Virus record (IMG/VR): IMGVR_UViG_3300013014_000020
Span: 32,001-96,000 of that record
DNA: 64,000 bases
Source: a virus
Reading direction: 5' to 3' (one strand)
Shown here: positions 28,945-62,778 of the stretch, piece after piece
Layout: every line of letters starts with the position of its first letter
How positions within the stretch are numbered: position 1 is the stretch's first letter
Translations under genes and position numbers: made by a program
Notes under the pieces: generated by a model
Told to the model about the DNA's origin: nothing
Databases searched by the model: none
What the model saw: the letters and a program-made list of their open reading frames with translations, nothing else

Positions 28945-31900
28945 TTATACATCATCAAACGACGCACCAGTTGGTGTAATGTAGAATGTAATATCAATAA
29001 ATTCTAAAGATTTTGTAGGTTTAATATAGATTTTACCAACCATTTGGTTTTTATCTAAGTCTTCGGTATCATTTGATACTGTTACTCGGAAATCATATAA
29101 ACCTCTATCTCTTCTTATTGAATCTAAAATTGGGTTAACCGCATTCAAGAAGTCTTGTCTTACTTGTTGGTCATTTTGGTCAAACAACAATCTTACAGAA
29201 ACAGCAGAAATTAATTTTCTTGCTTGTAATAACAATCTTCTTACGTTGATTCTATCAAGGGCTGATTCTCTTACTTGAAGTGTTTTATTACCCCAAATTA
29301 CAGTACCTACGTCAGCAAATGTTGCGATTGGGTTAATTCTACCAAGATAAAGAACGTCTCTATCTTCTTGTGTTAACTTCTTACGAGCTTTAATTGAATT
29401 TACAATACCACGAGTATAACCCGCTGCCGCAAACCAAGGGAATGCAATATTATCAGTAAGTGCCAAGTTTCTTGTAACTTCAGCAGTTGCTGGAATATAG
29501 ATTTGTGTATTGTTTACACTATCTCTTGTTAACACCCAAGGATAATATGTTGCAGTATAGTTAGAGTCAATACCTGTTTCTTCTAACAAATCAACAGCTT
29601 CTTGTGGGTAGATAAAGTTATCACCTTCAGTTGTTGTTGCAACAAACATATTGTAATCCGGCATTGTTGTAATATAAAGTGAATCCGCTCTTTCATTTTC
29701 AACCATATCGATTGTTGTTTCAACAAGATTACTATTGTTATACAAATCAATACCTGGTGTTGTTAATATATTGATATTTACAGCTTCTGGGTTGGCAAAT
29801 GTTCTAATACCTAATAAGTAAGCGTAGTAATCTGTATTACCATATTCAACACTTCCATCACCGATTGCAATTTGTTTAAACAATCCATTTCCTTTACCTT
29901 TAGGGTATCTTAAAGATGAACAAGCACCATTTAAGAATCCTGTTCTACCTAAAGTATATTTATCAGCATTTGTTCTGTATTCTCTATAGATATCCCAACC
30001 ATCAAATCCACCATAAACCATTACTGTGAATTTTCTAGCGTTTAATCTGTAGTAAGGATCAGTTGGGTCCGTAGGTTCCGAAGAAAACGTAGCGTCACCA
30101 ACTTCAAAAGCTGAAGTACCACTTGAAGCAAAAGCTCCGGAAATTGTAATACCACTTGCAAGTTCGTCCATATGGAAACCTTTAGTTTTGAAATCCCACT
30201 CAAATGGTTCACCAGAACATAAGTTAAATGGTTTTCTTTTTCCTTTATATTGGAAGAAATCTGTATCGACACCCCAGTAAGAACCTAAACCTAAGTATGT
30301 TCTTCTAACGTTGTCTCCACCACTTGTGAACGCATCATCACCACCATTGGATAAACCAAAAGGAGGGTTAAATACTAATTCACCTGGTAAGAAATATTTA
30401 GTTTTATAAACTGGGAATGGTGATCTTCCACCTGGATATTCTCTGAATGTATAACCTTCAAAACCACAAGGGATTGAATCTATTGGTGCGTCTTCATTAA
30501 TTTCAACAAGGACGTATCTAGACTTTAATTCATATTCACCATCTAATGTACCAATTTTTTTAGCAATAAAGTTATTTTCTTGTGGGTTCATTGAACAGTT
30601 AGTGAATTTTTCCAATACAACTGGGTTAGAATCACTATCAAAATAATCTCTAATTAAAACTGTAAACGTTTCATTGTTAAATGATAAGTCAGCTAATGAA
30701 ATTTTCACTTCGGTGTTTGCACTATTACCGTCCGAAATTGTATAGAATTTAAATAAGTTATAAACCTTTGTACCTCTTAATTCTGATACAACCCAAGGTG
30801 TGCTTGGTGATTGGAATTTTTCTAAAAAGTAACCAATACTATTTAAGTCATTACTTTGAGCACCTTCACTAGTAACTAATTCAGCACTTAAACCTCTTAT
30901 ATAACCTTTGCTCCACGCATAATTAAGTAAATTTAAATACGATTCTTCGACCATTAATGGAACTTGAGTTCTTGGTTTTTCAAAATTACCACGACCAAAT
31001 ACTTTATTAATGTTTTTAGCATCACTATTAGATAATGAAACTTCAAAATCAAATTCTTTACCGTCGTAGTTAGTAATACCAACACTAAATGGTAAAAATG
31101 GATTTTTAAGTACACCACTATACTGACCAGTCATATCTATTGTAACATCTGTAATACCAGTAACTTCATAGATTGGATTTGTTCCATCTGAATAAGGTGA
31201 ATTACCTCTTGATCTCAATGTTGTTACAACTAAATCATCGTATTCAGTAAATGAACTTCCAGTGTAATAATAAATCACACCCACAACAGAACCTGTAAAA
31301 CACACATTTGGTATTGGTGGTACTGTTGTTGTAGTTGTTACTGGTAAAATTGGGTCGCAAATAAATTGTATAGTAATTGTAACATCATTAGGATCTAATT
31401 CGATAGGATCACTAGATACTAAATTACTTACTGAACCAGTACCAGCTAATCTTTGATAATCGTCGTTAGGGAAACTAACAATAGTACAACCACTAACCTC
31501 ACCGGCTTCAATTGTTACAGAATCACTAATTAATATTGGTAACCCACTTGTAACGTTTATTGTTGTATCAAATGATAATGTTACATCATTTGTAACTGGT
31601 AGTGTTGAAGATAAACAAAATTGAACGACAATTGAACCTGGTGCAACACTTACAACTAAATTATAAGGACCAAAATTTCCAGTCGTTGTTGTCGTTGTTA
31701 TCATATACGGAATGAATGGATTTTGTAAACTTGTATATGTGTTTGTTTGAACAAGGTTATCAACCGATGAAAAGAATGAAAACCCTGAATATAAACTATT
31801 TCCAGCATTTTGAAACAATGCATAATACCAAGAATCGTTTTGTGGTGAAGTTGGGTCTGAATTTTCAAAAACAACATTATCAACCGCAAATACATTTGTT

Positions 31901-32601
31901 TCCGCAGTGTAACCACCACCATATAAAGTATTATAATCTGCTTGTGGTATTGAACCAAAATATCTTATAAAATTATTTTGTGCGGCAGTTGGATTACTAC
32001 TATTAATAACATCAGAAATTAATGCGTTAATTTGTGTTTGTAGTGTTGATAAATCACCATCAAATTCTTCATACGAAGAAGTTAGAATGTTTTGGATGTC
32101 GCTTGGGAAACTTGTTAAGTAACTAACAGCTCCTGTGTTTAGAGTACACGCACTAAATTCTACGGTAAATGGTAATTCTTTTTTAATCACACAAGCTGGT
32201 TCACATAAAACGGTACCAGCACTTAAACACCAATAATCTAATGTTTTAGAGTCCAAGTTTGCTTTAGTTAAAATAGACCAAGAAGGCCCAGCGTCATATC
32301 CAGATAATCCTAAAATTCTGGTAACAAACAATTGATTTGATTGTTGTAAATACGCTTTAGCGATATAAGCAGATTCATACTTTGGAATCTGTGTGTTTAC
32401 GAATTTATCTGGTGATGTTCCACCAAAATAAGATTGGAATTCGTCGTAGTTTCTTACAAAAATTGGTTCAAATGCCGGACCTTTAATTGTTTCTCCGACT
32501 ATCCCTAGAGTTGTAACACCAACGCTTTGAGCAACAAAACTCAAATCAACTTCTGATGTATAAACTCCTGGTGATACAAAAACTTTACTGTTAGTAGCCA
32601 T
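28945..32601 (-). CDS. Tail sheath protein, gp18-like, with large insertions
   Basis: SPGVYTSEVDLS N-terminus; PWFAAAGYTRG, INPI, IWGNKTLQ, LDRINVRRLL and IKPTKSLEFI C-terminal sheath motifs. Confidence 0.95.
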   Translation of the reverse strand: MATNSKVFVSPGVYTSEVDLSFVAQSVGVTTLGIVGETIKGPAFEPIFVRNYDEFQSYFGGTSPDKFVNTQIPKYESAYIAKAYLQQSNQLFVTRILGLSGYDAGPSWSILTKANLDSKTLDYWCLSAGTVLCEPACVIKKELPFTVEFSACTLNTGAVSYLTSFPSDIQNILTSSYEEFDGDLSTLQTQINALISDVINSSNPTAAQNNFIRYFGSIPQADYNTLYGGGYTAETNVFAVDNVVFENSDPTSPQNDSWYYALFQNAGNSLYSGFSFFSSVDNLVQTNTYTSLQNPFIPYMITTTTTTGNFGPYNLVVSVAPGSIVVQFCLSSTLPVTNDVTLSFDTTINVTSGLPILISDSVTIEAGEVSGCTIVSFPNDDYQRLAGTGSVSNLVSSDPIELDPNDVTITIQFICDPILPVTTTTTVPPIPNVCFTGSVVGVIYYYTGSSFTEYDDLVVTTLRSRGNSPYSDGTNPIYEVTGITDVTIDMTGQYSGVLKNPFLPFSVGITNYDGKEFDFEVSLSNSDAKNINKVFGRGNFEKPRTQVPLMVEESYLNLLNYAWSKGYIRGLSAELVTSEGAQSNDLNSIGYFLEKFQSPSTPWVVSELRGTKVYNLFKFYTISDGNSANTEVKISLADLSFNNETFTVLIRDYFDSDSNPVVLEKFTNCSMNPQENNFIAKKIGTLDGEYELKSRYVLVEINEDAPIDSIPCGFEGYTFREYPGGRSPFPVYKTKYFLPGELVFNPPFGLSNGGDDAFTSGGDNVRRTYLGLGSYWGVDTDFFQYKGKRKPFNLCSGEPFEWDFKTKGFHMDELASGITISGAFASSGTSAFEVGDATFSSEPTDPTDPYYRLNARKFTVMVYGGFDGWDIYREYRTNADKYTLGRTGFLNGACSSLRYPKGKGNGLFKQIAIGDGSVEYGNTDYYAYLLGIRTFANPEAVNINILTTPGIDLYNNSNLVETTIDMVENERADSLYITTMPDYNMFVATTTEGDNFIYPQEAVDLLEETGIDSNYTATYYPWVLTRDSVNNTQIYIPATAEVTRNLALTDNIAFPWFAAAGYTRGIVNSIKARKKLTQEDRDVLYLGRINPIATFADVGTVIWGNKTLQVRESALDRINVRRLLLQARKLISAVSVRLLFDQNDQQVRQDFLNAVNPILDSIRRDRGLYDFRVTVSNDTEDLDKNQMVGKIYIKPTKSLEFIDITFYITPTGASFDDV

Positions 32602-36305: not shown

Positions 36306-38402
36306 ATGAAAGTTAAGGTAAAACATATAAAATGTGATATGTCCGAAAAAGACAGAAAGTTAGCAAACGATTTTATAAAATTTCTACAAAAAAAATATCC
36401 ATTAAAAGAAGAAATTACAATTATTTTTACTGGTGAAAGATTTGGCACAATGACATCTGGAAGTAGAACTAAAGATTCTGAACTTAAAATATTAACTAAA
36501 GGAAGAATGAATAGAGATATTTTTAGAACTTTAGCTCACGAATGGATACACGAATGGCAAATGAATGTAAAAGGAAAAAAACCAACTAACGATGGTATTG
36601 GTGGGCCACTAGAAGATGAAGCAAATGCTGAAGCTGGTTCTCTATTAAAGAAATTTGAAAAAAATTTTCCAGAAAAAGAAGAAATGATGTATGAAGGTAT
36701 AAATAAAAAAATTAATTTATTAAAAGAAAATATTTTAATCACTGAAAAAGAAAACATCAAAAAAGAATTTCTTTTAGAGATGAAAAAGATTGGTATTGAA
36801 AAATTACCGTATTCGTATTCGGCATTAAAACAATTTGTTGATCCAGAAACAATGAACATACATTATAACAAACATTATAAAGGTTATGTTAAAAAATTAA
36901 ATGACGCTCTTTCTAAAAAAAATTATAAAGATGTTGATTTAGAAGATATTATAAAATCTATTGGTAAGTACGATACAAAAGTTAGAAACAACGCTGGTGG
37001 TGCTTTTAATCACGCTTTATTTTGGAAAATGTTATCACCAAAAAAACAAATACCAAAAGGTGAAATTTTTGAAAAGATTACCAAACAATATGGTAATATT
37101 AAAAAAATGAAAGACGAGTTTAATGAAGTTGCTAAAGAAAGATTCGGTTCTGGTTGGGTTTGGCTTATTTTAACAAAAACAAATAGACTAAAAATTATGT
37201 CAACACCAAATCAAGATAACCCTTTAATGAACATTGTTAAAGATGGTGGATACCCATTACTTGGTCTTGATCTTTGGGAGCACGCTTATTATTTAAGATA
37301 CAGAAACAAAAGAGATGAGTATATTAAAAAATTCTGGAATCACATAAATTGGGAATTTGTTAATGAGCTCTATGTTGGGAAATCTAAAAAAAAATTAAAT
37401 GAATCTTATTTAAAAGTTTTATTAGAGAGCGAAGAATTTGAACCGGATATTAAACGTGCGATGAATCGTGAATTACAAAAAATTAGATTAATTCCATTAG
37501 ACGCTGAAGCCGCAGAAGTTGCAATCAATAACATAATAACAACAGAAATTGATGAACGTGGTTTAAAATTTGATAGGTCAATAGTTGGTTTAATGTCTTT
37601 AGATTTAAACAATACTTCCGAAAGAACTAGATTTAGATTTAATAATTATTATCAAAGATTCATTAGAAGTAGGTCAAGGGGTCTTGATTTTGAGGCGTTA
37701 ATTTCTGGTTTATTAGGTGGCAATATTTCTTCTGGGTTAAATACCCCTTATGATATTATTACGTCAGATAATTTAAAAATCTCTTGTAAAATTGTTAGAG
37801 ACACAAGTGAATCACCAGTATTAAAAGGTGTGAAAGCTTCGTTAAGTAATTATATTAATTCATACACGGGTAGTGATGAAAATAAAAACCTATTACAAAG
37901 TATTGAGTCTGAACCAAATGTAATTGCAAAATTAATTAATAGTGAAAATCAGGATATGAGAAATGTTGCTGAAGATTTAATTAGTTATTTATTAGTAGAT
38001 ATTGACGGCATGTTACTTGGTGTACCAAAAAATGATTATGAAATATCATTATATTATTACGATAAAAACGCACTTAAAAATATTCTTAAATTACCTGGAA
38101 TGACAACCGCACCAAAATCAAAGGGTTCTCAACAAATAAGGTTCTCAACAAAAATACTTAAATTAACAAATTCTGAAGTTACACCATTAAGGGGTTCTAT
38201 TAAATTTCCAGATATAACTATGGAAGAATACTCAAAATTTTTATTAGGTGATGATAAAACAAAAGAAGTTCTTGATTTATTTAATAATTTAGGTCAAAAA
38301 TATGGTGTAGGTAAATTAGGTGATAATATACCACAGGACGTTATTAAAAATCTTTCTAGAAATGAAAGATTTAAGATAGATATGAGAAGAATACTAAAAT
38401 AA
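36306..38402 (+). CDS. Three-domain protein: HEXXH zincin-like domain + Fe/Mn superoxide dismutase + PD-(D/E)XK-like domain
   Basis: RTLAHEWIHEWQ..EDEANA; LPYSYSAL..IHYNKHYKGY..GGAFNH..FGSGWVWL..NQD..DLWEHAYY; then RGLDFEALI..PYDII..KISCK. Confidence 0.85.
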   Translation: MKVKVKHIKCDMSEKDRKLANDFIKFLQKKYPLKEEITIIFTGERFGTMTSGSRTKDSELKILTKGRMNRDIFRTLAHEWIHEWQMNVKGKKPTNDGIGGPLEDEANAEAGSLLKKFEKNFPEKEEMMYEGINKKINLLKENILITEKENIKKEFLLEMKKIGIEKLPYSYSALKQFVDPETMNIHYNKHYKGYVKKLNDALSKKNYKDVDLEDIIKSIGKYDTKVRNNAGGAFNHALFWKMLSPKKQIPKGEIFEKITKQYGNIKKMKDEFNEVAKERFGSGWVWLILTKTNRLKIMSTPNQDNPLMNIVKDGGYPLLGLDLWEHAYYLRYRNKRDEYIKKFWNHINWEFVNELYVGKSKKKLNESYLKVLLESEEFEPDIKRAMNRELQKIRLIPLDAEAAEVAINNIITTEIDERGLKFDRSIVGLMSLDLNNTSERTRFRFNNYYQRFIRSRSRGLDFEALISGLLGGNISSGLNTPYDIITSDNLKISCKIVRDTSESPVLKGVKASLSNYINSYTGSDENKNLLQSIESEPNVIAKLINSENQDMRNVAEDLISYLLVDIDGMLLGVPKNDYEISLYYYDKNALKNILKLPGMTTAPKSKGSQQIRFSTKILKLTNSEVTPLRGSIKFPDITMEEYSKFLLGDDKTKEVLDLFNNLGQKYGVGKLGDNIPQDVIKNLSRNERFKIDMRRILK

Positions 38403-43195: not shown

Positions 43196-45091
43196 TTATA
43201 CAATATTTAACACACCACCATTATTCCAAACTGTTCCTGAAGCAAGGCCTGCTGAACTTGTTGGTAAATTACTCAAATGTAGACAGTTCATATGTGCCGT
43301 ATTTGCCGCTGTTGTTGTAATACCATTACCAATAATAAAAGAACAATCGTGCGATACTGTATTTCCGGACCCACCAAGAATACCAGAGTGAGAATTTGTT
43401 ATAGTGTTTTGAATACCACCAACAACAAGTGAATAACATCCACTTGATACGTTACAAGCGCCACCACCAATAAACGAACAACCACAATTTGTCATATTAC
43501 CAAAACCACCACCTATTGTTGAGTAAACTCCACTACTAGTGTTGGTTCCACCACCACCTATTGTTGATCTATCACCAAAAGCACGATTAAAATAACCACC
43601 ACTAACAGTTGATGTATCACCACTTGATGTGTTTTGACAACCACCACCAATTACAGAATAATCACCTAATGCTAGGTTACCGTTAGTACCGGATGATGAA
43701 CCACCACCACCAACTGTTGAGTAATTACCGCTTGCGGTATTACAACGACCACCAAGAATTGATGACGCAAAACCTATTGAGGTGTTACAAGTACCACCAA
43801 CAACAACTGATTCGGGCGAATCCGTAACATTACACCCACCACCACCAATAAATGATGCGGGTCCGTTTGCTGTGTTTACATAACCACCACTTACTGTTGA
43901 TAAATAATTACTTGATGTGTTAAACGCACCTCCACCAATAAATGATGCGGGTCCGTTTGCTGTGTTTCCGTAACCACCACTTATAGTTGAACTTTCGCCG
44001 ATTGTTGTGTTTCCTAAACCACCACCAATAAAAGAAAATTCTGAAGTTACAACATCATCTAAATCAAAGGTTAAATTATTTGTTGGTGATGAACCACCAA
44101 TAGTATTACCAGAAACTAAAACTTGTTCTCCTTGTTCATATCTTACACCTGTATTTATGATTATAATGTTACTAACAACACCACTACTAACATCAAAACT
44201 AAATTGTAAGTTTGAACCATAACCAACTAAACTAGTTGGATTAACTGTATATGTGTTATCTGTGATTCCAGATAAACTACCAGAATTAAAACTAATTGAG
44301 GTTACAAAACCACCATAATTTGTATTTCCTAATCCACCTCCTATTGTTGAAAATTCACCTAGTATAACGTTTTCACATCCACCACCATTAAATGTGTAGT
44401 AATTTCCTGATGTGTTACACTCACCACCACTTATTGTTGCTCCGCCCGTTGCGCCACCACTTAATATTGTTGTATTAGAAAGCCCACCACCAATTGTATC
44501 AAATTGGTTTTCGGAAAGATTATTACGACCTCCACTTACGGTTGATTGATAACCAGATGATGTGTTAAACGCTCCACCACTTACGGTTGAGTAATAACCA
44601 CTTGATGTGTTACGATAACCACCACTTACGGTTGAATGATAACCACTTGATGTATTTCTACGTCCCCCACTTACTGTTGAATAACACGCACTTGATGTAT
44701 TTTCAAGACCACCTCCTACGGTTGAAGAATTACCACTTGATGTGTTATTAATACCTCCACTTACTGTTGAACCATAACAACTTGATGTGTTAAGATAACC
44801 ACCACTTACGGTTGAATGATAACCACTTGATGTATTTCTACGTCCCCCACTTACGGTTGAGTAATTACATCCGGCAGTATTTAAAAGTCCTCCACTTACC
44901 ACGGAGTAATCACCAATTGCTGAACCACTTACATTTACTAATTGTACGGAACTACTTCCAGAACCAACTTCATATAGTTGTGTTGATCCAGTAATATTTG
45001 ATGTCCCCGTAACAATTAAATTCCCATTAATTGTTATATCACCACCTATGGTTTGTCCCGATAAGTTATTTACTATGTATTTTATTGCCAT
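43196..45091 (-). CDS. Gly/Ser-rich repeat fibre or adhesin-like protein (beta-solenoid)
   Basis: Many 15-aa repeats S(T/F)(V/I)(S/G)GGxxNTSSGxx; C-terminal LPTSSAGLASGTVWNNGGVLNIV. Confidence 0.75.
   Translation of the reverse strand: MAIKYIVNNLSGQTIGGDITINGNLIVTGTSNITGSTQLYEVGSGSSSVQLVNVSGSAIGDYSVVSGGLLNTAGCNYSTVSGGRRNTSSGYHSTVSGGYLNTSSCYGSTVSGGINNTSSGNSSTVGGGLENTSSACYSTVSGGRRNTSSGYHSTVSGGYRNTSSGYYSTVSGGAFNTSSGYQSTVSGGRNNLSENQFDTIGGGLSNTTILSGGATGGATISGGECNTSGNYYTFNGGGCENVILGEFSTIGGGLGNTNYGGFVTSISFNSGSLSGITDNTYTVNPTSLVGYGSNLQFSFDVSSGVVSNIIIINTGVRYEQGEQVLVSGNTIGGSSPTNNLTFDLDDVVTSEFSFIGGGLGNTTIGESSTISGGYGNTANGPASFIGGGAFNTSSNYLSTVSGGYVNTANGPASFIGGGGCNVTDSPESVVVGGTCNTSIGFASSILGGRCNTASGNYSTVGGGGSSSGTNGNLALGDYSVIGGGCQNTSSGDTSTVSGGYFNRAFGDRSTIGGGGTNTSSGVYSTIGGGFGNMTNCGCSFIGGGACNVSSGCYSLVVGGIQNTITNSHSGILGGSGNTVSHDCSFIIGNGITTTAANTAHMNCLHLSNLPTSSAGLASGTVWNNGGVLNIV
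44530..44915. repeat. 45-nt-unit tandem coding repeats
   Basis: Near-identical blocks ending at about 44674 and 44854, offset by 180 nt (4 units). Confidence 0.85.
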
Positions 45092-45989: not shown

Positions 45990-47273
45990 TTATGCTGGTG
46001 TTGTTGTTGTTCTTTCCCCATACGCAACTATACCCGATACTGTATTTACAATTGTAAACTTATAAATATACAATGTATTTCTAGCACCATTAGTCCATGA
46101 TTTAGTCCATATTTGAGGAACTCCATCTATTTTAAACCCTGTTATTTTCCAAGTATTTCCCGATATATCAGCATTTGACGCAATTATCTTTATAGATGTC
46201 GAACAACCATCAGGTAAATCAAAATTTGTTAAATTAACTATCCAATCCGATGTTGCATCAACCCCAAAATGAACAAATGTTGTTCCAATAGAACAATCAT
46301 AATTTACAGTACCAGATGGTGATGGTAAATTTGTTATCGCTCCTGTTATGTTTGGAGAATATATTGATCCTGTTATAGTTAATCTATCTGCATTTATAAA
46401 TTGAAAATAATCAATAGAGTTAGTATTAGTCCCCGTAAGAGATGAATTTGGTTTATCATAGATGGTATTAATAATTGAATAAATACCCGCAACGCTAATG
46501 GGTGCAACATTATTACCTGCCTGAACAAGAACTTGACTATTAAGCAAAGTTAAAGTTGTTGCGGAATTAGTAATAGTTATAGCATTTCCACCTAAAGCTG
46601 TTACAATACAATCAACTATAGCTAGATTACCCGCGCTAGCGGAAGGTGTAACAACACTATTACATCCTTTTACAATGACTTGTGCTGAAGCATTACTTAC
46701 GGATATACCAACATTTTTATTTCCGTTAATGATTATAGTACCCGAACCTGAAATTTGAATACCGGATATACATTGCATTTCCGAGTTAATAATCTCTACA
46801 TAACCACTAGAAGATTTAGTAACTTGAGTATCAACGGTACAGTTGCTTATATAAGCTTGAGCCGTTCCACTAATAACAAGGTTAGTCATCTTCAAACCCG
46901 AAATACGGGAGCCAGAACCTAATGTGCCGATAGTTAAAGTTCCATATAATAAAGTATTAGCACCTGTAAGTTCAGATGTTTGAATTGTAGTATTACCATC
47001 TGCTACAGTAATGTTTTCATTATAACCGCCTGGATGAACAATAATTGTTTTTCTATTACCAGCAACCAAAGTTAATGCCTTAGTAATAGTTGCAACGGGA
47101 TTAAGTAAACTGCCATCGCCTGTAGTGTCGTTTCCATCTATTTGACTTACGTGTATCTCATATTGAAAATTTGACGAAACATTATAATATGTTGTTGCCG
47201 ATATAGTATTCGTGGTTAAATCACCATTTATGGTTTGTCCCGATACGTTATTTACAATATATTTTGTTGCCAT
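45990..47273 (-). CDS. Fibre or spike-like protein with a pectin-lyase-like beta-helix
   Basis: IHVSQIDGNDTTGDGSLLNPVATITKAL..IIVHPGGYNE (beta-helix cap); N-terminus shared with 43196..45091. Confidence 0.65.
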   Translation of the reverse strand: MATKYIVNNVSGQTINGDLTTNTISATTYYNVSSNFQYEIHVSQIDGNDTTGDGSLLNPVATITKALTLVAGNRKTIIVHPGGYNENITVADGNTTIQTSELTGANTLLYGTLTIGTLGSGSRISGLKMTNLVISGTAQAYISNCTVDTQVTKSSSGYVEIINSEMQCISGIQISGSGTIIINGNKNVGISVSNASAQVIVKGCNSVVTPSASAGNLAIVDCIVTALGGNAITITNSATTLTLLNSQVLVQAGNNVAPISVAGIYSIINTIYDKPNSSLTGTNTNSIDYFQFINADRLTITGSIYSPNITGAITNLPSPSGTVNYDCSIGTTFVHFGVDATSDWIVNLTNFDLPDGCSTSIKIIASNADISGNTWKITGFKIDGVPQIWTKSWTNGARNTLYIYKFTIVNTVSGIVAYGERTTTTPA

Positions 47274-47291: not shown

Positions 47292-48368
47292 TTAGTCAAT
47301 TGGTAATCCGGACATATACCCAACAGTAATATCACTCCACCCTATACCAAATTCATGCTTCATAACTTTATCTACAACGACATATGATTCAAATTGTGTT
47401 GTACCGGTACTAACATCAGAATTAATAAAAATACCACTTAAAAAATATACATCATTTGTAGTGTTTCCGGTTACTTGACTTGGTAAATTTGCAATAATAT
47501 AATCATAAGCAGAATCCCTGATAGTTTCCGTGGCAAATATCATTTGTTTATTATAAACCTCTTCAGTAGTTCCTGTGAATCCACTTAAAGTAGATTTAAA
47601 TGGCCATAAAATATCGGTCAATTTCCAAAAAGAATAATTTTCATTATTAAAAGGTGCGTTATTTTGATTTGGAGGTGAACTTAGTTGATTTACAACTTGG
47701 TCAATTGCTCCCGCAACGGCACCACAGGTATTATCGGTTAAACTATTTGCCTTACCCCTTCTTAACATTCTACCTGAACGACCGTCTTCAGTAACACCAA
47801 TGTGTGGCGTACTTGTTACAAACAAGGTTCCACCAAGAGTTGTTGCTACGTGACTTGCAAATGCCCCAAATCCAACACTACCAACAAATGGATAACCTGC
47901 CAATCCACCGGACATAAACGGCCCTAAAAACGAATTAATACTGGTTGGCCATCCACCGATATTTCCGGGTAAATATGCTGCATCAACGTCATCAGAACAA
48001 ATACCTTCAGCTAAAACAATATCAGTTGATGGTATTCCTTCATTTGTAATATATTCTGTTGTGTATGTTCCCCATACTTCAGATAATACCGCTCCTGAGA
48101 ATGGTTGGTATCCTCCGTCAACAGTAACAGTTCTTACTGTTTGAGTATATGCACTCTGACCTTCTAACGGTGCTGGTACAATTATTTCGTATGTTCTATC
48201 ATATAATGGAACGTCTAATTCGTATGTTCCATAAGGATAACCCGAAATATTATTAAATGGTATTGTTTGAGTACCTAAGTCAACGGTTCCACCAGTTGTG
48301 GGTAAAAAAGTAACATTTGTCGTAAGTCCCGATAAATTTGTACTTGTTATTCTAATTCCTTGTATCAT
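47292..48368 (-). CDS. LCIB/LCIC-like (theta-class) carbonic anhydrase domain fused to an N-terminal surface-protein module
   Basis: GICSDDVD, FMSGGLAGYPFVGSVGFGAFASHV, PHIGVTEDGRSGRMLRRG, TCGAVAGA and SGIFIN match the LCIB_C_CA pattern with Cys/His/Cys Zn ligands. Confidence 0.85.
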   Translation of the reverse strand: MIQGIRITSTNLSGLTTNVTFLPTTGGTVDLGTQTIPFNNISGYPYGTYELDVPLYDRTYEIIVPAPLEGQSAYTQTVRTVTVDGGYQPFSGAVLSEVWGTYTTEYITNEGIPSTDIVLAEGICSDDVDAAYLPGNIGGWPTSINSFLGPFMSGGLAGYPFVGSVGFGAFASHVATTLGGTLFVTSTPHIGVTEDGRSGRMLRRGKANSLTDNTCGAVAGAIDQVVNQLSSPPNQNNAPFNNENYSFWKLTDILWPFKSTLSGFTGTTEEVYNKQMIFATETIRDSAYDYIIANLPSQVTGNTTNDVYFLSGIFINSDVSTGTTQFESYVVVDKVMKHEFGIGWSDITVGYMSGLPID

Positions 48369-48430
48369 TTTTTTTGTTTTTTTTGTTTTTTTTGTTTATT
48401 TTTTATAATAAATATTGTGTTATTTATTTT

Positions 48431-51004
48431 TTATATTACTAACCCATAATTTAAATCGTCTTCAGGTATATCTAAAACAACAATATCGTTAATATAAACT
48501 ATTAATCCATAATTCAAATCATTTTCTGGTATGTCTAATGCGTTTAATCCACCTAAACAAGGAGCTTCGGTTAATGTTTCTATTGTTAGAACATCTGATT
48601 CATCATAATATGATAATCTATCATCTCCATTTTTATTTTTGAATACATTAACTGTTGTGATATCATATAACATACCTGTACTTAAACAAGTACCGACAAT
48701 TTCGGCATTAACAATATTCCATTGAAATGAATCACCTATTTCATTACTACGGAAATTATCAGGTATAGTGTTATTATAGAAATATTCACCAATAGTATTA
48801 TTGTAAAAATTATTCCCAATTCTATTTCCTTGAGAAGTATTTATTCCAAAACCAAATCCATCTTGAATTTCATTACTACTAAAATAAGACCCTATTGTGT
48901 TATATGTGAATGAACCATAAAAATCATTAAATGTAAAATGGTTACCAATTATATTTGAATATGTGCCGCCACTAAGATTGTTGCTCAAAAAATTATAACC
49001 TACATTATTAAATTTAAAATCATCAAATATTTCATTAGCTTTAAAATCTGTTTTAACTTGGTTATCTGTAAAATCACCTTGAATATCATTTCCTTTAAAG
49101 TTATTCATAATTTGGTTACTTTCAAAAGTAAGACCTAAATTATCATCTTCACCAATTGTGTTTGTGTTAAAACCATTTAATATTGAATTTTTTCTAAAAT
49201 CAAAATAAATGGTATTAGTGTTAAAATCATTTAAAATGTTGTTATATTGAAAATTAAGTTTAATTATATTACCTTGAAATTCGTTTCCAATTCTATTACC
49301 CCTAAAATCATATTCCCCGATAATTGAACTGTCTCCAATTGTATTACCATTAAAAACGTGTTCAATAGTATTTTCATAGAACTCTGAATATATGGTGTTA
49401 TTATTATATCCGTTTCCAATTAAATTACGATTAAATTGTGAATAACTTTGATTACCATTATACCCATTACCAATATCATTATTATAGAAGTCATCATAAA
49501 TTTTATTATTATTGAACTGATTTCCTATTTCATTATTTTGAAAATCATCAGAAGTATAAACGTTATCCCTAAAATCATTTCCAATATTGTTTCTATAAAA
49601 AGACCCTCCTAGTAAAGTGTTACTATAAAAATCACTACCAATTCTATTATTATTAAAATTTGCGGTGATATAGTTGTTGTTAAAGTTTTCACCAATTATA
49701 TTACCGTCAAAATCATCGTTTGTTGAGTTGTTATAAAAACTATCACCAATTTGATTATTATCACAATCATCATTAAATGTGTTATTATAAGAACCGTTAC
49801 CGATGGTGTTGTTTCTAAATGAACCACCTAATAATACATTATTTGCAAGTAAAAAATTTCCAGTACCAAATTCTAAATGTAGATTAGAATAGTTACCAAT
49901 ATAATTATTAACCGCTCCACTATTATCAATAACATCTCCAAATGTTGTGTATTCAAAAACTTGGTCTTGTCTTACATTGGGTTGGTAATAACTCATTATA
50001 CCATCATCATTTCCATAATAATAAATTGAGTCAGTGGTTACACTTATTGTTACACCTGATATAATTGCTAAAGAATTGCTTACAACAGATAAAACTTCAA
50101 AAAATGAAGGATTTAAATTTTGTACTGAAACAATGTCTCCTGTTGAGAAATTTGAGGTAAATGTTGTACCCGTGTTACCATATAACACGGCAGTTGTTCC
50201 TGTTAAACCACTTATCCCAACAAGACCACTTAATGGTTGATTTTCGTAATATGAATATCCACGATATCTTTTAAATAAAATACTTCTGTTGTCATAATCA
50301 GTTCTATTATTAAAGTTATCAATTCTTTCAGTGATTCTACCTTTTGCAGGACTGCCGGTTACTTCAGTTGTATTCCAAGTTATGTCGTATGTTATTTTGT
50401 CTTGAGGGTATAATGTAGAATATACGGTAGGTGAAAACCCTGTTGTAGATATCGCCAATAATAAAATTGGTTCTGTTGTTCCTGTTTTATAGTTACCCGT
50501 TGTAATTGGATTTTTTACATTATTGTAGTTTGGTTGGTCATAACAAGTTTGATAATCAGTCATCAAGTAATATCTACCAGGTATTAATATACCATTACCA
50601 GCATCGGCAACAAGTTGTGAATATGTTCCACCAGTTACAAATACATCTGTTGATCCTGTGTATAAACCGCTAATTGATAAAGAACCATTTTGTCTATTAA
50701 GTGTTATTGTACCATTAGAATATGTCCCGCCAGTCACATAAAAATCTGTACCACCAGTATATAAACCGCTAATTGATAAAGAACCATTTTGTCTATTAAG
50801 TGTTATTGTACCATTAGAGTATGTACCACCAGTTACAAAGTTGTCTGATACACCACTTAATACATAATTTTTAAATTGTACTATTGGTGTTTGTTTTGTT
50901 TCACCAGTTATACTACCCAAGTAATTTACAATTGGGATAATGTCGTTTGTTGTATAACCTGAATTACCTAAGTATGGTAACTGTGAAATTTTCTTATCTG
51001 CCAT
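48431..51004 (-). CDS. Asn-rich beta-helix fibre or spike protein
   Basis: KKISQLP N-terminus, 33-aa VTGGTYSNGTITLNRQNG repeats and dozens of NxIGNxFxxN repeats. Confidence 0.75.
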   Translation of the reverse strand: MADKKISQLPYLGNSGYTTNDIIPIVNYLGSITGETKQTPIVQFKNYVLSGVSDNFVTGGTYSNGTITLNRQNGSLSISGLYTGGTDFYVTGGTYSNGTITLNRQNGSLSISGLYTGSTDVFVTGGTYSQLVADAGNGILIPGRYYLMTDYQTCYDQPNYNNVKNPITTGNYKTGTTEPILLLAISTTGFSPTVYSTLYPQDKITYDITWNTTEVTGSPAKGRITERIDNFNNRTDYDNRSILFKRYRGYSYYENQPLSGLVGISGLTGTTAVLYGNTGTTFTSNFSTGDIVSVQNLNPSFFEVLSVVSNSLAIISGVTISVTTDSIYYYGNDDGIMSYYQPNVRQDQVFEYTTFGDVIDNSGAVNNYIGNYSNLHLEFGTGNFLLANNVLLGGSFRNNTIGNGSYNNTFNDDCDNNQIGDSFYNNSTNDDFDGNIIGENFNNNYITANFNNNRIGSDFYSNTLLGGSFYRNNIGNDFRDNVYTSDDFQNNEIGNQFNNNKIYDDFYNNDIGNGYNGNQSYSQFNRNLIGNGYNNNTIYSEFYENTIEHVFNGNTIGDSSIIGEYDFRGNRIGNEFQGNIIKLNFQYNNILNDFNTNTIYFDFRKNSILNGFNTNTIGEDDNLGLTFESNQIMNNFKGNDIQGDFTDNQVKTDFKANEIFDDFKFNNVGYNFLSNNLSGGTYSNIIGNHFTFNDFYGSFTYNTIGSYFSSNEIQDGFGFGINTSQGNRIGNNFYNNTIGEYFYNNTIPDNFRSNEIGDSFQWNIVNAEIVGTCLSTGMLYDITTVNVFKNKNGDDRLSYYDESDVLTIETLTEAPCLGGLNALDIPENDLNYGLIVYINDIVVLDIPEDDLNYGLVI
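50661..50818. repeat. Direct repeat of about 59 nt, 99-nt period
   Basis: TATAAACCGCTAATTGATAAAGAACCATTTTGTCTATTAAGTGTTATTGTACCATTAGA at 50661 and 50760. Confidence 0.85.
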
Positions 51005-51050: not shown

Positions 51051-51596
51051 TTAGTAAATTATTTTATCATTATTTTCTGTGTTTAATACATCTCCATTTT
51101 CTGTTAATACATTGAATGTTTCAGGAATTGGTACGGGTTGTACACATATTGTTGTTGTGGTTCCTATAATAACTGGACTTGTATTACAACAAGGAAATTC
51201 ACTAACATAACAATTATTATATTCTAACGAATCACCAATAAAACTTTCTTGTATATTAATATATAGTTTGTCTCTTAAAGGTAATATTAAAACACCATCA
51301 TCATTTCTAAATAAAAATTGTCCTTCATATCTACCAACTTTTCTTGTGTCTGTATTTGAAAACTGATAATAAACATAATATTCTGGTTCGGCATTTGGGT
51401 CCAACATTTCTTTTGCGACAAATCCTGCTGGTCTTGTGATAATCTTTGGTATTCCAGTATCAATATCTACCATTGAAAAGAATATCGCAGATTCTTCAAT
51501 AAGACTTGTCATTTTATTAAAATCACTTCTGCCATCTTTAACCACGGCCATCTTTAATAAAGGAAGAGTTGCGTTTTTCTTAATAAAGAATTCCAT
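51051..51596 (-). CDS. Structural protein, BppU N-terminal-like
   Basis: FFIKKNATLPLL..YYQFSNTDT..GRYEGQF; C-terminal LTENGDVLNTE motif. Confidence 0.5.
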   Translation of the reverse strand: MEFFIKKNATLPLLKMAVVKDGRSDFNKMTSLIEESAIFFSMVDIDTGIPKIITRPAGFVAKEMLDPNAEPEYYVYYQFSNTDTRKVGRYEGQFLFRNDDGVLILPLRDKLYINIQESFIGDSLEYNNCYVSEFPCCNTSPVIIGTTTTICVQPVPIPETFNVLTENGDVLNTENNDKIIY

Positions 51597-51623: not shown

Positions 51624-53294
51624 TCAACATTCTTTTCTTAATTCTGCACTATAAAAATCAAAACGGTTGTGCTCAGTTGGTGTGATAAGTAACAGTCCAG
51701 GTTTTAGATTACTTTTGACTGTTTCTTGGAAATTATAAGACATAAGTGTTTGTTCATATGGAAAATCAAATTTATTTTTTAAATAACATTTGTAGTTTCC
51801 TTCTTTTGACATAAGGATTGGCCAATTAGAAAGATAAATTTGTCCGCTAGCATATGGTACGCCTTCATATGATTTTATATTATTAAAAAGTAAACAAGGA
51901 GCCTCTGGATCATAACCTTGCACTGGTAAGTTAGGTTTTTCTGGCCAGTGGTTTTGTCTAAACTCTTGTGGTACATTATACCAGGACCATTGTGTTTGAT
52001 GTGAACCAAAAAATTCTGTAAAGTTCATTTTAAGAAAATCAAATTCTTCTGTCTTTAATATGTTTAGAGTTTTTGAAAAAAGGTTTTCTACATATCGGTT
52101 AAACCCATTTTTACAAGTACCAGAATTTTTATTCACAAATAGCATATCATCCTCAAAGAAAAAATAATAACCCAAATCTTCTTCTTTGTTAAAATGTTCG
52201 GCAATAAATTGTCTTCCACCGGTTATCCCAATATTATCTTTTTTAATGTGGTCAAAACCATATCTTAAACAAAGTTCATTATATTTTGGTGTTGTATTTA
52301 AATCCGTTGAATTATTTAATAAAAATTTCTTCGTTCCGTTAATAAAATTTGGGTCATAAAATAACATACTTTTTATTAGCGACTCAAACTGTGATGGTGA
52401 GTTAAAACTTATAACATATAAGCCAACACCATTAGAATTTATGTTTGATTTTATAATTTTGTTTTTTTTATTTTTAATTACAAATGTATTATTTTTTACA
52501 TCTTCAAAAAATTTATACATCAAACCATTTGATTCTATTTCACAATAATCAATCATTGATGGATAAAGATAAGTCATAATTGTAAAAATACTTTCTTCGG
52601 TTCCCATCAAATTTTTATTTAATGTGTCTATTAATAATTGGTAGTATAAAACATTTAAGTCAGCAATTTTTTGTTTTGTTCCACCAAAAAACCCACCTCT
52701 TGAGACAAACTCTGTTTTTGTTTTTGCGTAGTCACACATTTTTTTATAATCAAATCCGTGCACTTCGTTTTCCGCTTCATAAGGAAAGACAACAAACATA
52801 AATTTATCAAATAAACTTTCTATTTTATCTAATACATTATCACGAGTAAAATACCCCAAATTAACCGTGTTAGTTAATCCGGCGTCTATCCAGTAAAGTT
52901 TTTCAGAATTAAAAGGATCCAAAATAGATGCGTCGTGTAGTAAAAACATTTTGGACATTACAAGTGGATTGTAATATTCTAATCTTGCTTGTGTTGATTC
53001 TTTTAACCAACCAGAAAGATTATACCAATTTTCATTTGTCCTTATTTTTTGAATTTTATCAAAGTATTCGTTATTTCTAAACCAAGATAAATTCCTATTA
53101 ATAAATTTTGTATTGTTTGGGTTTCTATACTTGAATACAAATTCCTCTAATTGTTTATCACCAAAAATAATTAAGTTACAATCTATTTGTAATAACTCTT
53201 TAAATTTTTCTAAATAATAATCAAAAGATCTATTCCACCCTTCATTTAGGTTACCCCTACCAATATCCCATAAACCTGTAACTAATGTTATCAT
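51624..53294 (-). CDS. Two-domain glycosyltransferase: HtrL/YibB-like + GT-A-like
   Basis: ITLVTGLWDIGR, SKMFLL, YWIDAG, GGFFGG and GTEESI (HtrL-like), then GLYVISFN...FFFEDDM (DxD-type). Confidence 0.75.
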   Translation of the reverse strand: MITLVTGLWDIGRGNLNEGWNRSFDYYLEKFKELLQIDCNLIIFGDKQLEEFVFKYRNPNNTKFINRNLSWFRNNEYFDKIQKIRTNENWYNLSGWLKESTQARLEYYNPLVMSKMFLLHDASILDPFNSEKLYWIDAGLTNTVNLGYFTRDNVLDKIESLFDKFMFVVFPYEAENEVHGFDYKKMCDYAKTKTEFVSRGGFFGGTKQKIADLNVLYYQLLIDTLNKNLMGTEESIFTIMTYLYPSMIDYCEIESNGLMYKFFEDVKNNTFVIKNKKNKIIKSNINSNGVGLYVISFNSPSQFESLIKSMLFYDPNFINGTKKFLLNNSTDLNTTPKYNELCLRYGFDHIKKDNIGITGGRQFIAEHFNKEEDLGYYFFFEDDMLFVNKNSGTCKNGFNRYVENLFSKTLNILKTEEFDFLKMNFTEFFGSHQTQWSWYNVPQEFRQNHWPEKPNLPVQGYDPEAPCLLFNNIKSYEGVPYASGQIYLSNWPILMSKEGNYKCYLKNKFDFPYEQTLMSYNFQETVKSNLKPGLLLITPTEHNRFDFYSAELRKEC

Positions 53295-54535
53295 AAATCA
53301 CCAACTAGTCTATCACACCAACCTTTTGATTTTGAATGTGGCCATACAACCCAATACTTCGGTTTTTCTTTTGCGTTAAACTCCCTCCATATTTTTCCAT
53401 AACCGTCGGCATCTGTTTTTATTCTTTTGATTTCTTCTTCTTGTGCGTCCATACGATAAATTGTTTCATCTTTATCGTTATGAAATGCAACAACTAAAAA
53501 ATCATAATCGTCTTCTGGTATTTTATCTAATGGGACATCAATACAATGTTTAAATATTCTTAAAAAACTTTCTTTCCATTCTTCTTCGTTTTTATAATCA
53601 TATGGGTTTGGTGGATAATTTTTATCTATTGTATATTGTTGTACGGATCTTTTCTCAAAAAGAACACCAGAATATTTTTCGTAATCACCAACTGTCCTCA
53701 CATTTCCAAAACCATATTTTAATTCACCATCATATTTTTCACCATCAACCCCCAAAACTTTTCTGTTTTTACTATGTGAACTTTCATTTTTCTTATACCA
53801 TACACTATCATCATCCCACTGTTTTGTTCTACCTTTTCTTGTGTATTCGTGATAAATAACAATTTTATGTGGATGGAATAAATCATATCCGTGCGTGTAA
53901 GCACGAACAGCAATTGATATTTCTTCTCCGTGAAAATAATATTCCGGATCATGCTGAACCTCAACTGAAAATTCACCTAACGTGAAACAAAAATGCGCCG
54001 AATAAAATCTTGCTGGGATTGGTTTTTGCAACTCTTGCCATCCTGGTATTACTTCTGGTAAAAAGAAAACAACACCTTCTGGTGTAAATCTATCAAAGAC
54101 CATTCTCCACGGCTCTTTAACTCTTCCTTGTGGGTCATTTTCTGGGTCAAAAGAAGAAACATATCCTGTTAATAATGGTTTTTTATATCCATCTTCTTGC
54201 AATTCCTTTAACATTTTAATTAAAGTTTCATCCCAATTAGGTTCAAAACGCATATGAGAATCTAATTGTAACGTGTATGTTTCACCACTATATAATTGTT
54301 GGACTTGATGTCTTGCCCAACAAACACCGGTTGATTCTGTGTACGGTATATTTAAAATTCTAAAACGATTATCATTTTCATATTCAATTAAATCATCAAA
54401 CTTATCATCTGAATGAAATTGTCTAGCAATACCTAATCTTAAATTTTCTGGGTATTTTGCCTTATCCAACATATCTTTAATTGTTGGTATAAGTTGGGGG
54501 TCTCTATAAGACGCGATTTGTATAAATATTGTCAT
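53291..54535 (-). CDS. GT60-type GlcNAc transferase (Skp1-hydroxyproline / polypeptide GlcNAc transferase-like)
   Basis: TIFIQIASYRDP, GVCWARH, LQLDSHMRF (DSH motif), FHGEEISIAVRAYTHGYD and YHEY. Confidence 0.85.
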   Translation of the reverse strand: MTIFIQIASYRDPQLIPTIKDMLDKAKYPENLRLGIARQFHSDDKFDDLIEYENDNRFRILNIPYTESTGVCWARHQVQQLYSGETYTLQLDSHMRFEPNWDETLIKMLKELQEDGYKKPLLTGYVSSFDPENDPQGRVKEPWRMVFDRFTPEGVVFFLPEVIPGWQELQKPIPARFYSAHFCFTLGEFSVEVQHDPEYYFHGEEISIAVRAYTHGYDLFHPHKIVIYHEYTRKGRTKQWDDDSVWYKKNESSHSKNRKVLGVDGEKYDGELKYGFGNVRTVGDYEKYSGVLFEKRSVQQYTIDKNYPPNPYDYKNEEEWKESFLRIFKHCIDVPLDKIPEDDYDFLVVAFHNDKDETIYRMDAQEEEIKRIKTDADGYGKIWREFNAKEKPKYWVVWPHSKSKGWCDRLVGDL

Positions 54536-61041: not shown

Positions 61042-62778
61042 TTATTCACATAACCATATATCTACCTCAGCATTTGTTGAGACATATGTTCTATATACTG
61101 AATAAATAGTTAAATATCCAAAATTGTCAATTAAAGAAACGTCTGGTTTAGAAATAATTGGAATAACAAATCCGTTACATCCTGAATTACTATTTCTAAA
61201 TATTGATGGTTGTGGCATTGATTTAGGTATTAATATATAGATATAACCAATTCCATTTGAAACTGTTAAATTAAGATCTATTGATGTTGTTATATCTAAT
61301 TTTATTAATGTTGATACGTCATTAGTTGTTAAATTTGAGTTTTGTATTTTTCCATAATAAATCACAGGAGCTGGAGGAGGACTTGATGTTGGTGTTGGTG
61401 TGTTTGTTGGTGTAGGAGTATTTGTTGGTGTATTTGTTGGTGTATTTGTTGGTGTATTTGTTGGTGTTGTCGTAGGAGTTGGGGTATTAGTTGGGGTTGT
61501 CGTAGGAGTTGTTGTTGGAGTATTTGTTGGTGTATTTGTTGGTGTTGTCGTAGGAGTTGGGGTATTAGTTGGGGTTGTCGTAGGAGTTGTCGTAGGAGTT
61601 GTTGTTGGAGTAGGTGTATTTGTAGATGTTATTGTAGGTGTTGGAGTATTAGTTGTTGTTGGAGTTGGGGTATTAGTTGGGGTTGTTGTTGGAGTAGGTG
61701 TATTTGTAGATGTTATCGTAGGCGTTATTGTAGGCGTTATTGTAGGTGTTGGAGTATTAGTTGGGGTTGTTGTTGGTGTGTTTGTCGGAGTAGGGGTATT
61801 AGTTGTTGTAGGTGTAGGCGTAGAAGTATTTGTTGGAGTAGGTGTAGGGGTATCTGTAGAAGTTACCGTTGGTGTGCCTGTAGGCGTAGGAGTATTTGTA
61901 GGAGTAGGTGTAGGCGGGATATTTGAAATTATATTAACTGCATACTCAACATCCAAATCCACATTTAACACGCGAGTATTTTCTAAACAATTTTGGTCTG
62001 ATAACATATTAAAGTCATAATCTAAAATGACTTCTGTAAATCCACTTACCGATCCTAAAGGTATTGTAATTTGCTTGGTAACAACCATTCTTTCACCATC
62101 TAAAGAAACTAATACACAATCATACTCAACAGTACTATCCACATCAAGAGGTATATTATATCTAACAAATGACTGTAATATAACCGAACCTGGAACAATA
62201 TATTGATCAATTAAAACTTGTAAAACTGTTGGGGATGGTGATGCAGTCGGCGTTTGTGTTGGGTTACATTCCGGAGTCTTTGTAGGTGTAGGAGTATTGG
62301 TTGGTGTTTGTGTCGGTGTCGGAGTCTGGGTAGGAGTATTAGACGGTGTAAAGTTTGGAGGCAAAGGCGTTACACACAAATTCCAAGTAGGAGTTGGTGT
62401 TGGCGTAGGTGTCGCTGTTGTTGTTGCTGTCGGAGTGTTTGTTGGTGTAGGAGTCTGTGTAGGTGTTGGCGTATTAGTAGGAGTCTGTGTTGGAGTTCTT
62501 GTAGGTGTTGGAGTTGGTGTTCTTGTAGGTGTATTTGTCGGTGTTGGTGTAGGAGTTGGTCTTGGTACGTTTAAAAAGTTTGTACAACTACCACCATCTG
62601 TTGATATTGTGTATGTTCCGTAAATTTCTTGTTGTGGTGTTAATAAATCTGGCTGGAAAGTATATGGAAGTATAACAAAACCAATATTTATAGTGATATT
62701 ACTATTATCTGGTTTGAATAGTATTTGGGCGCTTTCACCGCTAAAATTAACACTTTGTATTGTAATTATCTGACTCAT
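61042..62778 (-). CDS. Mucin-like Thr/Pro-repeat surface protein
   Basis: Two long (TP)n/(TNTP)n tracts separating three small globular domains. Confidence 0.85.
61370..61920. repeat. Low-complexity Thr-Pro coding repeat (second tract at about 62230-62560)
   Basis: Degenerate GGTGT/GGAGT/GTT repeats on the plus strand. Confidence 0.9.

Follow-up and report, generated by a model that had tools for sequence, protein, structure and literature searches.

A 64,000-nucleotide stretch of viral DNA (bases 32001-96000 of the 115-kb IMG/VR virus record IMGVR_UViG_3300013014_000020, with a CheckV completeness of 39%; hereafter, the window) encodes a 358-aa protein in which an N-terminal module is fused to a carbonic anhydrase (CA) domain of the LCIB type. 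Judged from its sequence and a structural model, the C-terminal part (residues 103-358) is a bona fide LCIB-type domain, kept by selection and with a complete catalytic site, while the N-terminal module is real, mobile and virus-specific. The reading we favour, to which we give a probability of roughly 0.5, is that of a carbonic anhydrase carried by the virion and docked on it through this module.

The source genome is AT-rich (about 31% G+C) and carries markers of tailed phages, namely genes for a sheath-like protein of 1218 aa and for a DNA polymerase of family B (PolB). Since close relatives are found on contigs of up to 320 kb, the window phage can be regarded as a giant phage. The protein has 275 homologues, the best 120 of which are 355-363 aa long and 78-94% identical to it. 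Purifying selection acts on both of its parts: in 20 pairwise comparisons with close relatives, the median dN/dS was 0.29 (module) and 0.19 (LCIB part).

An LCIB-type domain with a complete catalytic site

LCIB/theta CAs, which by structure belong to a subgroup of the beta-CAs, are known from the CO2-concentrating mechanisms of algae and diatoms. An earlier note on this DNA had recognized LCIB-family motifs between residues ~80 and 358 and proposed a profile search and a predicted-structure comparison. All the motifs it quoted are present, and the predicted zinc ligands are spaced as in the family: CSDD starts at residue 124, GGLAGYPF at 154, ASHV at 171, PHIG at 188, RRGK at 203, TCGA at 214 and GIFIN at 312. 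The Pfam profile LCIB_C_CA (PF18599) matches residues 103-332 with 95.4 bits, well over the cut-off of 25 (E 3.9e-27), along profile positions 11-216 of 223, and a search at the level of the genome confirmed the match. Comparison with the sequences of the Protein Data Bank (PDB) using phmmer retrieved 6kfs (E 6.5e-14) and PtLCIB4 (5b5y, E 2.3e-10), in addition to the S47R and H88A mutant entries of PtLCIB4 and entry 9vzj, and in the resulting alignment CSDD, SH, PHIG, RRG and CG line up with the corresponding PtLCIB4 motifs.

The structural comparison led to the same family. The AlphaFold2 (AF2) model, built on an alignment of 87 rows, had a mean predicted local distance difference test score (pLDDT) of 92.4 and a predicted template modelling score (pTM) of 0.86, a value which suggests that module and enzyme are fixed relative to each other. 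When it was searched with Foldseek, the top eight matches were all LCIB-family structures (among them 5b5z, 5b5y, 6kfs, 5b60, 5k5w and 5b5x, which include LCIB and LCIC), with E values down to 2e-14 and template modelling (TM) scores, relative to the target, of 0.80-0.82 for the best and 0.66-0.82 across the eight. Classical beta-CAs rank after these entries, with TM scores of about 0.45.

Six residues, C124, D126, H173, H189, R203 and C215, are invariant in 72 out of 72 aligned LCIB-domain sequences, and the same columns are also invariant in a separate alignment (A4) of 19 divergent viral members. The predicted Cys-His-Cys ligands of the zinc, C124, H189 and C215, align with the Cys of CSDEV, the His of (S/P)HVGV and the Cys of CCG in PtLCIB4 and 6kfs, and His173 we take to be the counterpart of the residue altered in the H88A entry, 5b5z. 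The roles given to these residues here and in Table 1 were drawn from the titles of PDB entries, the alignments and a review on these enzymes (PMC5876011). Two elements distinguish the viral sequences from other LCIB domains: a NIGQxP insertion that follows CSDD, and a conserved C-terminal extension, GxFINxD...W.D.T. The esterase activity envisaged in the earlier note found no support.

An N-terminal module shared by proteins with different cargos

The first 66 residues are predicted to fold as a beta-sandwich with strands at residues 3-7, 16-23, 29-35, 38-42, 47-53 and 58-64, and pLDDT is about 90 whether this segment is modelled alone or within the whole protein. About 50 of the best 150 representative matches cover only residues 3-70 of the query, which they align with their own residues 3-70. 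These module-only matches are 50-67% identical to the query and belong to proteins of 83-714 aa, in which the module always occupies the extreme N-terminus and is in many cases followed by Pro/Thr-rich linkers; the connector of the LCIB fusion, in contrast, has no Pro/Thr linker. A search of the ESM Atlas with the module gave no usable match. Its profile found no copy in 401 sampled Bacteroidota genomes and matched the phage's own genome twice, a control that holds partly by construction, given that the alignment includes both N-termini of the phage genome. Likenesses of the fold to several type-9 secretion C-terminal domains (Z 5.2-6.0) were tied with those to fibronectin type III (FN3) domains, so no inference was drawn from them.

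One of these two copies starts the LCIB fusion and the other a 578-aa mucin-like protein rich in Pro and Thr, encoded at 61042-62778 of the window. The earlier note had pointed out the similarity between both N-termini. Pairwise BLASTP makes it only marginal (E 0.099, 29% identity over 58 aa), and it becomes significant with a profile. For this, 49 module proteins were aligned, leaving out every LCIB protein and the mucin open reading frame (ORF), and the 805 ORFs of the genome were searched. The profile finds the LCIB gene with an E value of 1e-33 and, with its 75 columns, matches the mucin ORF in register from the first residues (E 1.3e-7); after being cut to 58 columns, which removes the Pro/Thr tail, it still retrieves the mucin ORF at 9e-6, while the next-best ORF in the search stays at about 1e-3. 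Orthologous mucin-type N-termini are present in four relatives (L007, L012, L026 and L028; retrieved stretches are designated by L numbers), and bridging forms in L057 and L007.

That note had proposed a search for other cargos fused to the same N-terminal module, and there are many of them, including propellers, a lectin and mucin-like proteins. Cargo domains recognized by Pfam are a DUF5122 propeller, a concanavalin A (ConA)-like Laminin_G_3 domain and a GSDH-like propeller; nine further module-bearing proteins had no Pfam match, and most cargos are Pfam-less. Thus, a conserved N-terminal module is common to proteins whose distal domains differ. Module genes tend to be clustered or in tandem: L057 has three of them, L007 has three or four, and in L048-L051 they form adjacent pairs. 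In addition, a 693-aa protein of L057, with a module 70% identical to the query, lacks the LCIB domain and is encoded where relatives carry LCIB.

A clade of LCIB proteins found only in phages

A pattern scan with an alignment of viral LCIB proteins showed that at least 173 IMG/VR stretches encode relatives. A maximum likelihood tree was built with 136 non-redundant domains (quick search, LG+G4, midpoint root for drawing only), in which the window sequence was represented by the near-identical L006, L021 and L024. A single clade (SH-aLRT 100), whose stem measures 1.06 substitutions per site, unites all 31 sequences from viral contigs with 20 unnamed representatives from metagenomes, and it is separate from the genomic homologues of Bacteroidota and from multi-domain diatom-like proteins.

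Several unrelated types of N-terminus are found within the clade. Besides the beta-sandwich module, these include MANLTLRSTKGSALT..ELDGNFEYF, MSTLKTNNIEPVSGN and a tag of ~45 residues (MA.L.PYALKN....VPGSL....P..G.W), and there are also tandem pairs of paralogues and a 776-aa form. The module is confined to the subclade that contains the window protein, and this subclade groups with members devoid of it, which argues that N-terminal parts have been exchanged on a stable enzyme core. One of the other N-termini (the L058 type) was considered as tail-fibre-like, but its matches to tail-fibre genes of Achromobacter phages only reach an E value of about 0.4, and we take this as a lead and not as evidence.

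The tandem pairs consist of divergent LCIB paralogues, the first of about 366-406 aa and the second of 285-313 aa (L097, L098, L101, L128, L131, L133 and L135), and the phages with such pairs are on contigs of up to 217 kb. On smaller phage contigs, the LCIB genes with the short tag are repeatedly preceded, at a distance of one or two genes, by a conserved ORF of ~336-338 aa (L063, L064, L074, L076, L078, L102, L108, L112, L115 and L116). This ORF, possibly a capsid gene, has no counterpart in PHROGs and only weakly matches a hypothetical protein of a Leptolyngbya phage. A tail-fibre-like ORF in L111 is similar in size and corresponds to a different protein.

The earlier note knew of no established phage example of this family, and none was found here. 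Among the 50,697 phage records deposited in GenBank/INPHARED, tblastn gave no match to the fusion protein, and so no cultured relative, nor to a divergent viral LCIB protein. None of the 38,880 PHROGs families corresponds to the window protein or to ten other viral LCIB proteins, and literature searches combining LCIB and phage, the Pfam name, or carbonic anhydrase and bacteriophage yielded no description of a phage LCIB.

Cellular relatives and probable host

Scanning one genome per prokaryote species with the single protein revealed no close relative. With an alignment as query (A5), 356 stretches with LCIB relatives were obtained; almost every one of the 80 best comes from Bacteroidota, with 30-36% identity over the domain. 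Of the 401 Bacteroidota genomes sampled, 49 have PF18599, each in a single open frame of 226-280 aa; these homologues are stand-alone proteins that have no signal peptide and keep the same catalytic residues. In Pedobacter sp. KBW06 (L136:4777-6630) the LCIB_C_CA gene has the same orientation as a Bestrophin_2 channel gene and comes directly after it, and in Flavobacterium johnsoniae (L184:4291-6633) it is located near the genes for the beta and gamma subunits of urease, neighbours that fit with CO2/bicarbonate chemistry for the family. The pairing with bestrophin recalls the algal CO2-concentrating mechanism.

With respect to the host, a Shine-Dalgarno-like word precedes only 2 of the 47 window genes, and leaders contain 51% A, compared to 34% in the background. 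The leader of the LCIB gene, AAACAAAAAAAACAAAAAAAACAAAAAAA, is likewise A-rich and has no Shine-Dalgarno sequence. Scarce Shine-Dalgarno sequences and A-rich leaders are characteristic of translation initiation in Bacteroidota. These features, along with the cellular relatives, are hints that the host is probably a freshwater Bacteroidota. They also led us to set aside the idea of a cyanophage protein that sabotages the CO2-concentrating mechanism of its host.

Genomic context

The positions of the gene, its parts and its surroundings are given in Table 1. In the window, the LCIB gene is tightly spaced between a fibre-like and a tail-like gene on the same strand. The conserved backbone of the region consists of a GT60-like glycosyltransferase gene and, further on, the HtrL-like/glycosyltransferase genes (51624), a 51051-like gene, a variable slot and the DNA polymerase gene. 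Fibre genes share the slot with the LCIB gene in the window, L016 and L024, the 857-aa fibre gene being present at this position in both relatives and absent from L031, L041 and L044. The LCIB gene of L045, L050 and L051 is elsewhere, beside other module genes.

Table 1. Features of the LCIB fusion gene and its surroundings (positions in the window; aa, amino acids; nt, nucleotides)
Feature	Position	Strand	Basis
Whole gene, 358-aa fusion (module + LCIB-type carbonic anhydrase)	47292..48368	-	ORF list; ATG start, stop codon 47292-47294
N-terminal adaptor module, residues 1-66, predicted six-strand Ig/FN3-like beta-sandwich	48171..48368	-	AF2 model and module-only matches
Connector, residues 67-102, short helix 71-79	48063..48170	-	Model secondary structure; alignment A5
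LCIB_C_CA (theta/beta-type carbonic anhydrase) domain, residues 103-358	47295..48062	-	Pfam PF18599 and Foldseek
Cys124, predicted first zinc ligand (ICSDD; = Cys of PtLCIB4 CSDEV)	47997..47999	-	Alignment to 5b5y, 6kfs; 72/72; codon checked
Asp126, putative catalytic Asp close to Cys124	47991-47993	-	72/72; codon checked
His173 (ASHV; = His of PtLCIB4 GHIPD)	47850..47852	-	Alignment; 72/72; codon checked
His189, predicted second zinc ligand (PHIG)	47802..47804	-	Alignment; 72/72; codon checked
Arg203 (RRGK; = RRG of PtLCIB4 and 6kfs)	47760..47762	-	Alignment; 72/72; codon checked
Cys215, predicted third zinc ligand (TCGA)	47724..47726	-	Alignment; 72/72; codon checked
TATTTAT promoter-like motif, in the 62-nt gap 5' of the LCIB gene	48408..48414	-	Sense orientation
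Upstream neighbour, fibre-like protein of 857 aa, rich in repeats, N-terminus MADKKISQLPYLG	48431..51004	-	No Pfam/PHROG match; 62-nt gap to LCIB gene
Downstream neighbour, 427-aa tail-protein-like ORF	45990..47273	-	phrog_4577 'tail protein', E 4.2e-7; 18-nt gap
Divergent module copy, start of 578-aa Pro/Thr mucin-like protein (61042-62778)	62593..62778	-	Profile E 1.3e-7 / 9e-6

Twenty of the 47 gene starts, among them those of sheath, baseplate-size and mucin genes (e.g. 19081-24294, 28945-32601 and 61042-62778), are preceded at 8-60 nt by the promoter-like motif TATTTAT in sense orientation. These positions account for 22 of the 70 occurrences of the motif, against 1.4 expected if they were uniform, an enrichment figure that is inflated by the AT-rich intergenic DNA. 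The motif is often part of ATATTTAT[ACT]A, and in style it resembles the T4-late-type box TATAAATA.

The 181-aa gene upstream of the fibre gene (51051-51596, minus strand) has relatives of 125-610 aa with a common N-terminal part of ~130 residues (L024:4469-6301, L016:6178-7773). The L024 form ends in a papain-family Peptidase_C1 domain, and so does a 1086-aa protein with a Pro/Thr linker in L057 (L057:3809-7069). Here again, enzyme cargos seem to vary behind an N-terminal part that is conserved. The fibre-like proteins encoded at 43196-45091 and 45990-47273 (both on the minus strand) have yet another common N-terminus, MA(I/T)KYIVNN(L/V)SGQTI(G/N)GD, which is distinct from the beta-sandwich module and belongs to the same island. 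The 556-aa protein of 51624-53294 (minus strand) is headed by an HtrL_YibB-like domain (Pfam E 3e-21), and its gene has a 4-nt overlap with a glycosyltransferase gene (53291-54535, minus strand; phrog_24687, E 5e-164); both are 58-70% identical across the phage group, and the extra genes located between them in relatives vary in number. Lastly, a 698-aa ORF (36306-38402, plus strand) contains a complete Fe/Mn superoxide dismutase (SOD) domain at about residues 164-356, with 35-48% identity to bacterial and phage SODs; its relatives are shorter (250-516 aa).

A proposed carbonic anhydrase on the virion and alternative explanations

In the explanation we propose, residues 103-358 would interconvert CO2 and bicarbonate, and the enzyme would most likely be dimeric, by analogy with other beta-type enzymes. 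The adaptor formed by residues 1-66 heads a set of interchangeable cargos, which comprise Pro/Thr mucin-like proteins, beta-propellers, a lectin of the ConA type and some large proteins whose fold is unknown, and it would dock each of them on a common site of the virion, which could be the capsid or a tail appendage. A particle-borne enzyme may then alter the local balance of CO2, bicarbonate and pH at the surface of the host, or be delivered with the particle. Display of the enzyme on the virion is plausible because the module is restricted to viruses, always lies at the extreme N-terminus, is shared with mucin-like, lectin and propeller proteins and appears in tandem arrays whose members can be swapped, and because in other phages different add-ons are joined to this enzyme core. 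The tight spacing of the gene between a fibre-like and a tail-like gene in the window, and the TATTTAT copy that it has in common with sheath and baseplate-size genes, would also agree with display. A more far-reaching proposal, that tailed phages of freshwater Bacteroidota expose an active carbonic anhydrase on their particles, as one among several enzymes and binders that the virus-only adaptor attaches to the common docking site, and use it to manipulate CO2, bicarbonate and pH at the cell surface during adsorption or entry, is put forward tentatively, as possible rather than probable.

A number of observations weigh against the display of an active enzyme. According to the review (PMC5876011, summarising Jin et al. 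2016), CrLCIB and LCIC, which have the same site as the phage protein, are inactive in vitro, and this is explained by disorder of an active-site His and Arg; both residues are kept in the phage protein (H173 and R203), and still an intact site is no guarantee of activity. The phage protein scores 95 bits with the Pfam model, compared to 262 for bacterial homologues, and this low score, together with the long stem of the clade, indicates that the substrate may have shifted. As for the genomic context, in L031, L041 and L044 (47-54% identity) the LCIB gene is the sole occupant of the slot, directly before PolB and near glycosyltransferases; in other lineages, exonuclease and glycosyltransferase genes are among its neighbours. 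The gene therefore has no conserved position in a structural gene module, and since the flanking fibre genes are lineage-specific, the argument for display that could be made from context is weakened. Late timing of expression is not proven by TATTTAT, given that some genes without a structural role, for example the ORF with the SOD domain, have the motif in front of them as well. Nor did the module fold lead to a relative of known location: the best Foldseek match in the PDB had an E value of 0.13, the best in BFVD, to an uncharacterised phage protein, 0.02, and a wide fold search with VIA gave a best Z of 6.2, with usher, type-9-secretion C-terminal and FN3 domains tied, all of these being weak matches to a generic beta-sandwich. 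In the GenBank/INPHARED phages, tblastn with the module alone produced only a chance-level match (E 0.6). Finally, an enzyme that works as a dimer would sit oddly on fibres, which are trimers.

Some of these data would agree with an auxiliary metabolic enzyme that acts in the cytoplasm of the host, where it might provide bicarbonate for the carboxylations of nucleotide and lipid synthesis or buffer pH, the module serving in oligomerisation, stability or intracellular localisation. E. coli, for instance, needs a beta-type carbonic anhydrase for bicarbonate supply at the CO2 level of air. The intact catalytic site under purifying selection, the location of the gene before the DNA polymerase, with no fibre genes, in the relatives at 47-54% identity, and the cytoplasmic, stand-alone nature of the bacterial homologues are all consistent with this, as is the description, in metagenomes, of alpha-, beta- and gamma-type CAs as viral auxiliary genes (bioRxiv 10.64898/2026.01.21.700432). 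However, it leaves unexplained why at least four unrelated N-terminal add-ons are present on one enzyme core, and why one of these also heads lectin, propeller and Pro/Thr mucin-like proteins in swappable tandem arrays, as is typical of proteins exposed on virions; moreover, one would expect an enzyme of metabolism to be similar to the copy of the host, whereas the phage clade is old and long-stemmed. We consider this explanation, the main rival of display, unlikely.

It is also conceivable that the fold has shifted or lost its catalytic function and serves a fibre or decoration protein as a distal domain for binding or recognition, with the zinc site retained for structure, for a small anionic ligand of the host surface, or for COS or CS2 as substrate; some enzymes with the beta-CA fold are in fact CS2 or COS hydrolases. 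The long stem, the NIGQxP insertion, the C-terminal extension, the lectin and propeller cargos, which are binding domains, and the inactivity of CrLCIB and LCIC mentioned above would be in line with this possibility, which the earlier note had raised as a CA fold repurposed as a binding tip. Nevertheless, Asp126, His173 and Arg203, and not just the metal ligands, are invariant across a clade with 25-50% identity, as expected of catalysis rather than of fold stability, and this disfavours the binding tip. In addition, no surface patch or variable tip of the kind typical of receptor-binding domains was identified, and other cargos of the same islands are enzymes as well (Peptidase_C1 on the 51051-like and 1086-aa proteins). 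A binding domain, or one with a shifted substrate, seems quite improbable to us. Giant phages package many internal proteins, and a module that is always at the extreme N-terminus and is common to several cargos might target them to the interior of the capsid or tail, from which the enzyme would enter the cell with the DNA and act as soon as infection begins. The long Pro/Thr linkers and the lectin and propeller cargos suggest exposed, extended proteins instead, and we regard packaging as very unlikely. Docking on the virion through the adaptor thus remains the reading we favour.

Relevance and comparison with known systems

The LCIB core forms a large, old and phage-only branch in hundreds of uncultured phage contigs, and its many natural variants are good material for structural work. 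To our knowledge, the enzymes so far described in virions (depolymerases, lysins) act on polymers. If particle-borne, the protein would be without precedent among virion enzymes, in that its substrate would be a small inorganic molecule, and represent a new class; the adaptor would then offer a natural system of display that merits characterisation. If intracellular, it would constitute a new class among viral genes of carbon metabolism.

With PtLCIB4 and PtLCIB3 of Phaeodactylum tricornutum and with 6kfs, the phage protein shares the predicted fold (TM 0.80-0.82), the Cys-His-Cys site with its Asp, His and Arg, and membership in PF18599. It differs from PtLCIB4 and 6kfs in sequence, with 19-23% identity in the structural alignment, and by the addition of the beta-sandwich, the insertion after CSDD and the C-terminal extension. 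The role of the founding members in algal or cyanobacterial CO2 concentration does not apply to the phage protein, which, in a phage whose host is probably heterotrophic, would not be part of such a mechanism; that role is a trait of the founding members and not of the family as defined by Pfam. The nearest cellular relatives found, which are not algal proteins and come from heterotrophic Bacteroidota (Pedobacter, Flavobacterium, Emticicia, Saprospiraceae and others), have the same catalytic residues but are encoded in single copy, carry no add-on and fall outside the phage clade. Like the CAs reported from metagenomic viruses (bioRxiv 10.64898/2026.01.21.700432), the protein is phage-encoded and has a conserved active site; those are classical alpha, beta and gamma enzymes close to genes of the hosts, and the report has no occurrence of LCIB and describes no fusion to a structural module.

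The other members of the phage clade (with the ~45-aa tag, with MANLTLRS.../MSTLKTNN..., in tandem, or of 776 aa) have the same core and invariant residues as the window protein, and differ from it in their N-terminal add-ons and genome positions. In families of tailspikes and fibres, and in decoration proteins such as T5 pb10 and T4 Hoc, a shared N-terminal anchor is combined with distal domains that are swapped. The module proteins resemble them in having a conserved N-terminus, diverse cargo, tandem paralogues and cassette-like replacement, although no sequence or specific fold relationship to them was found, and whereas the cargo of tailspikes and fibres is a receptor binder or a depolymerase, here the module would carry a small-molecule metalloenzyme.

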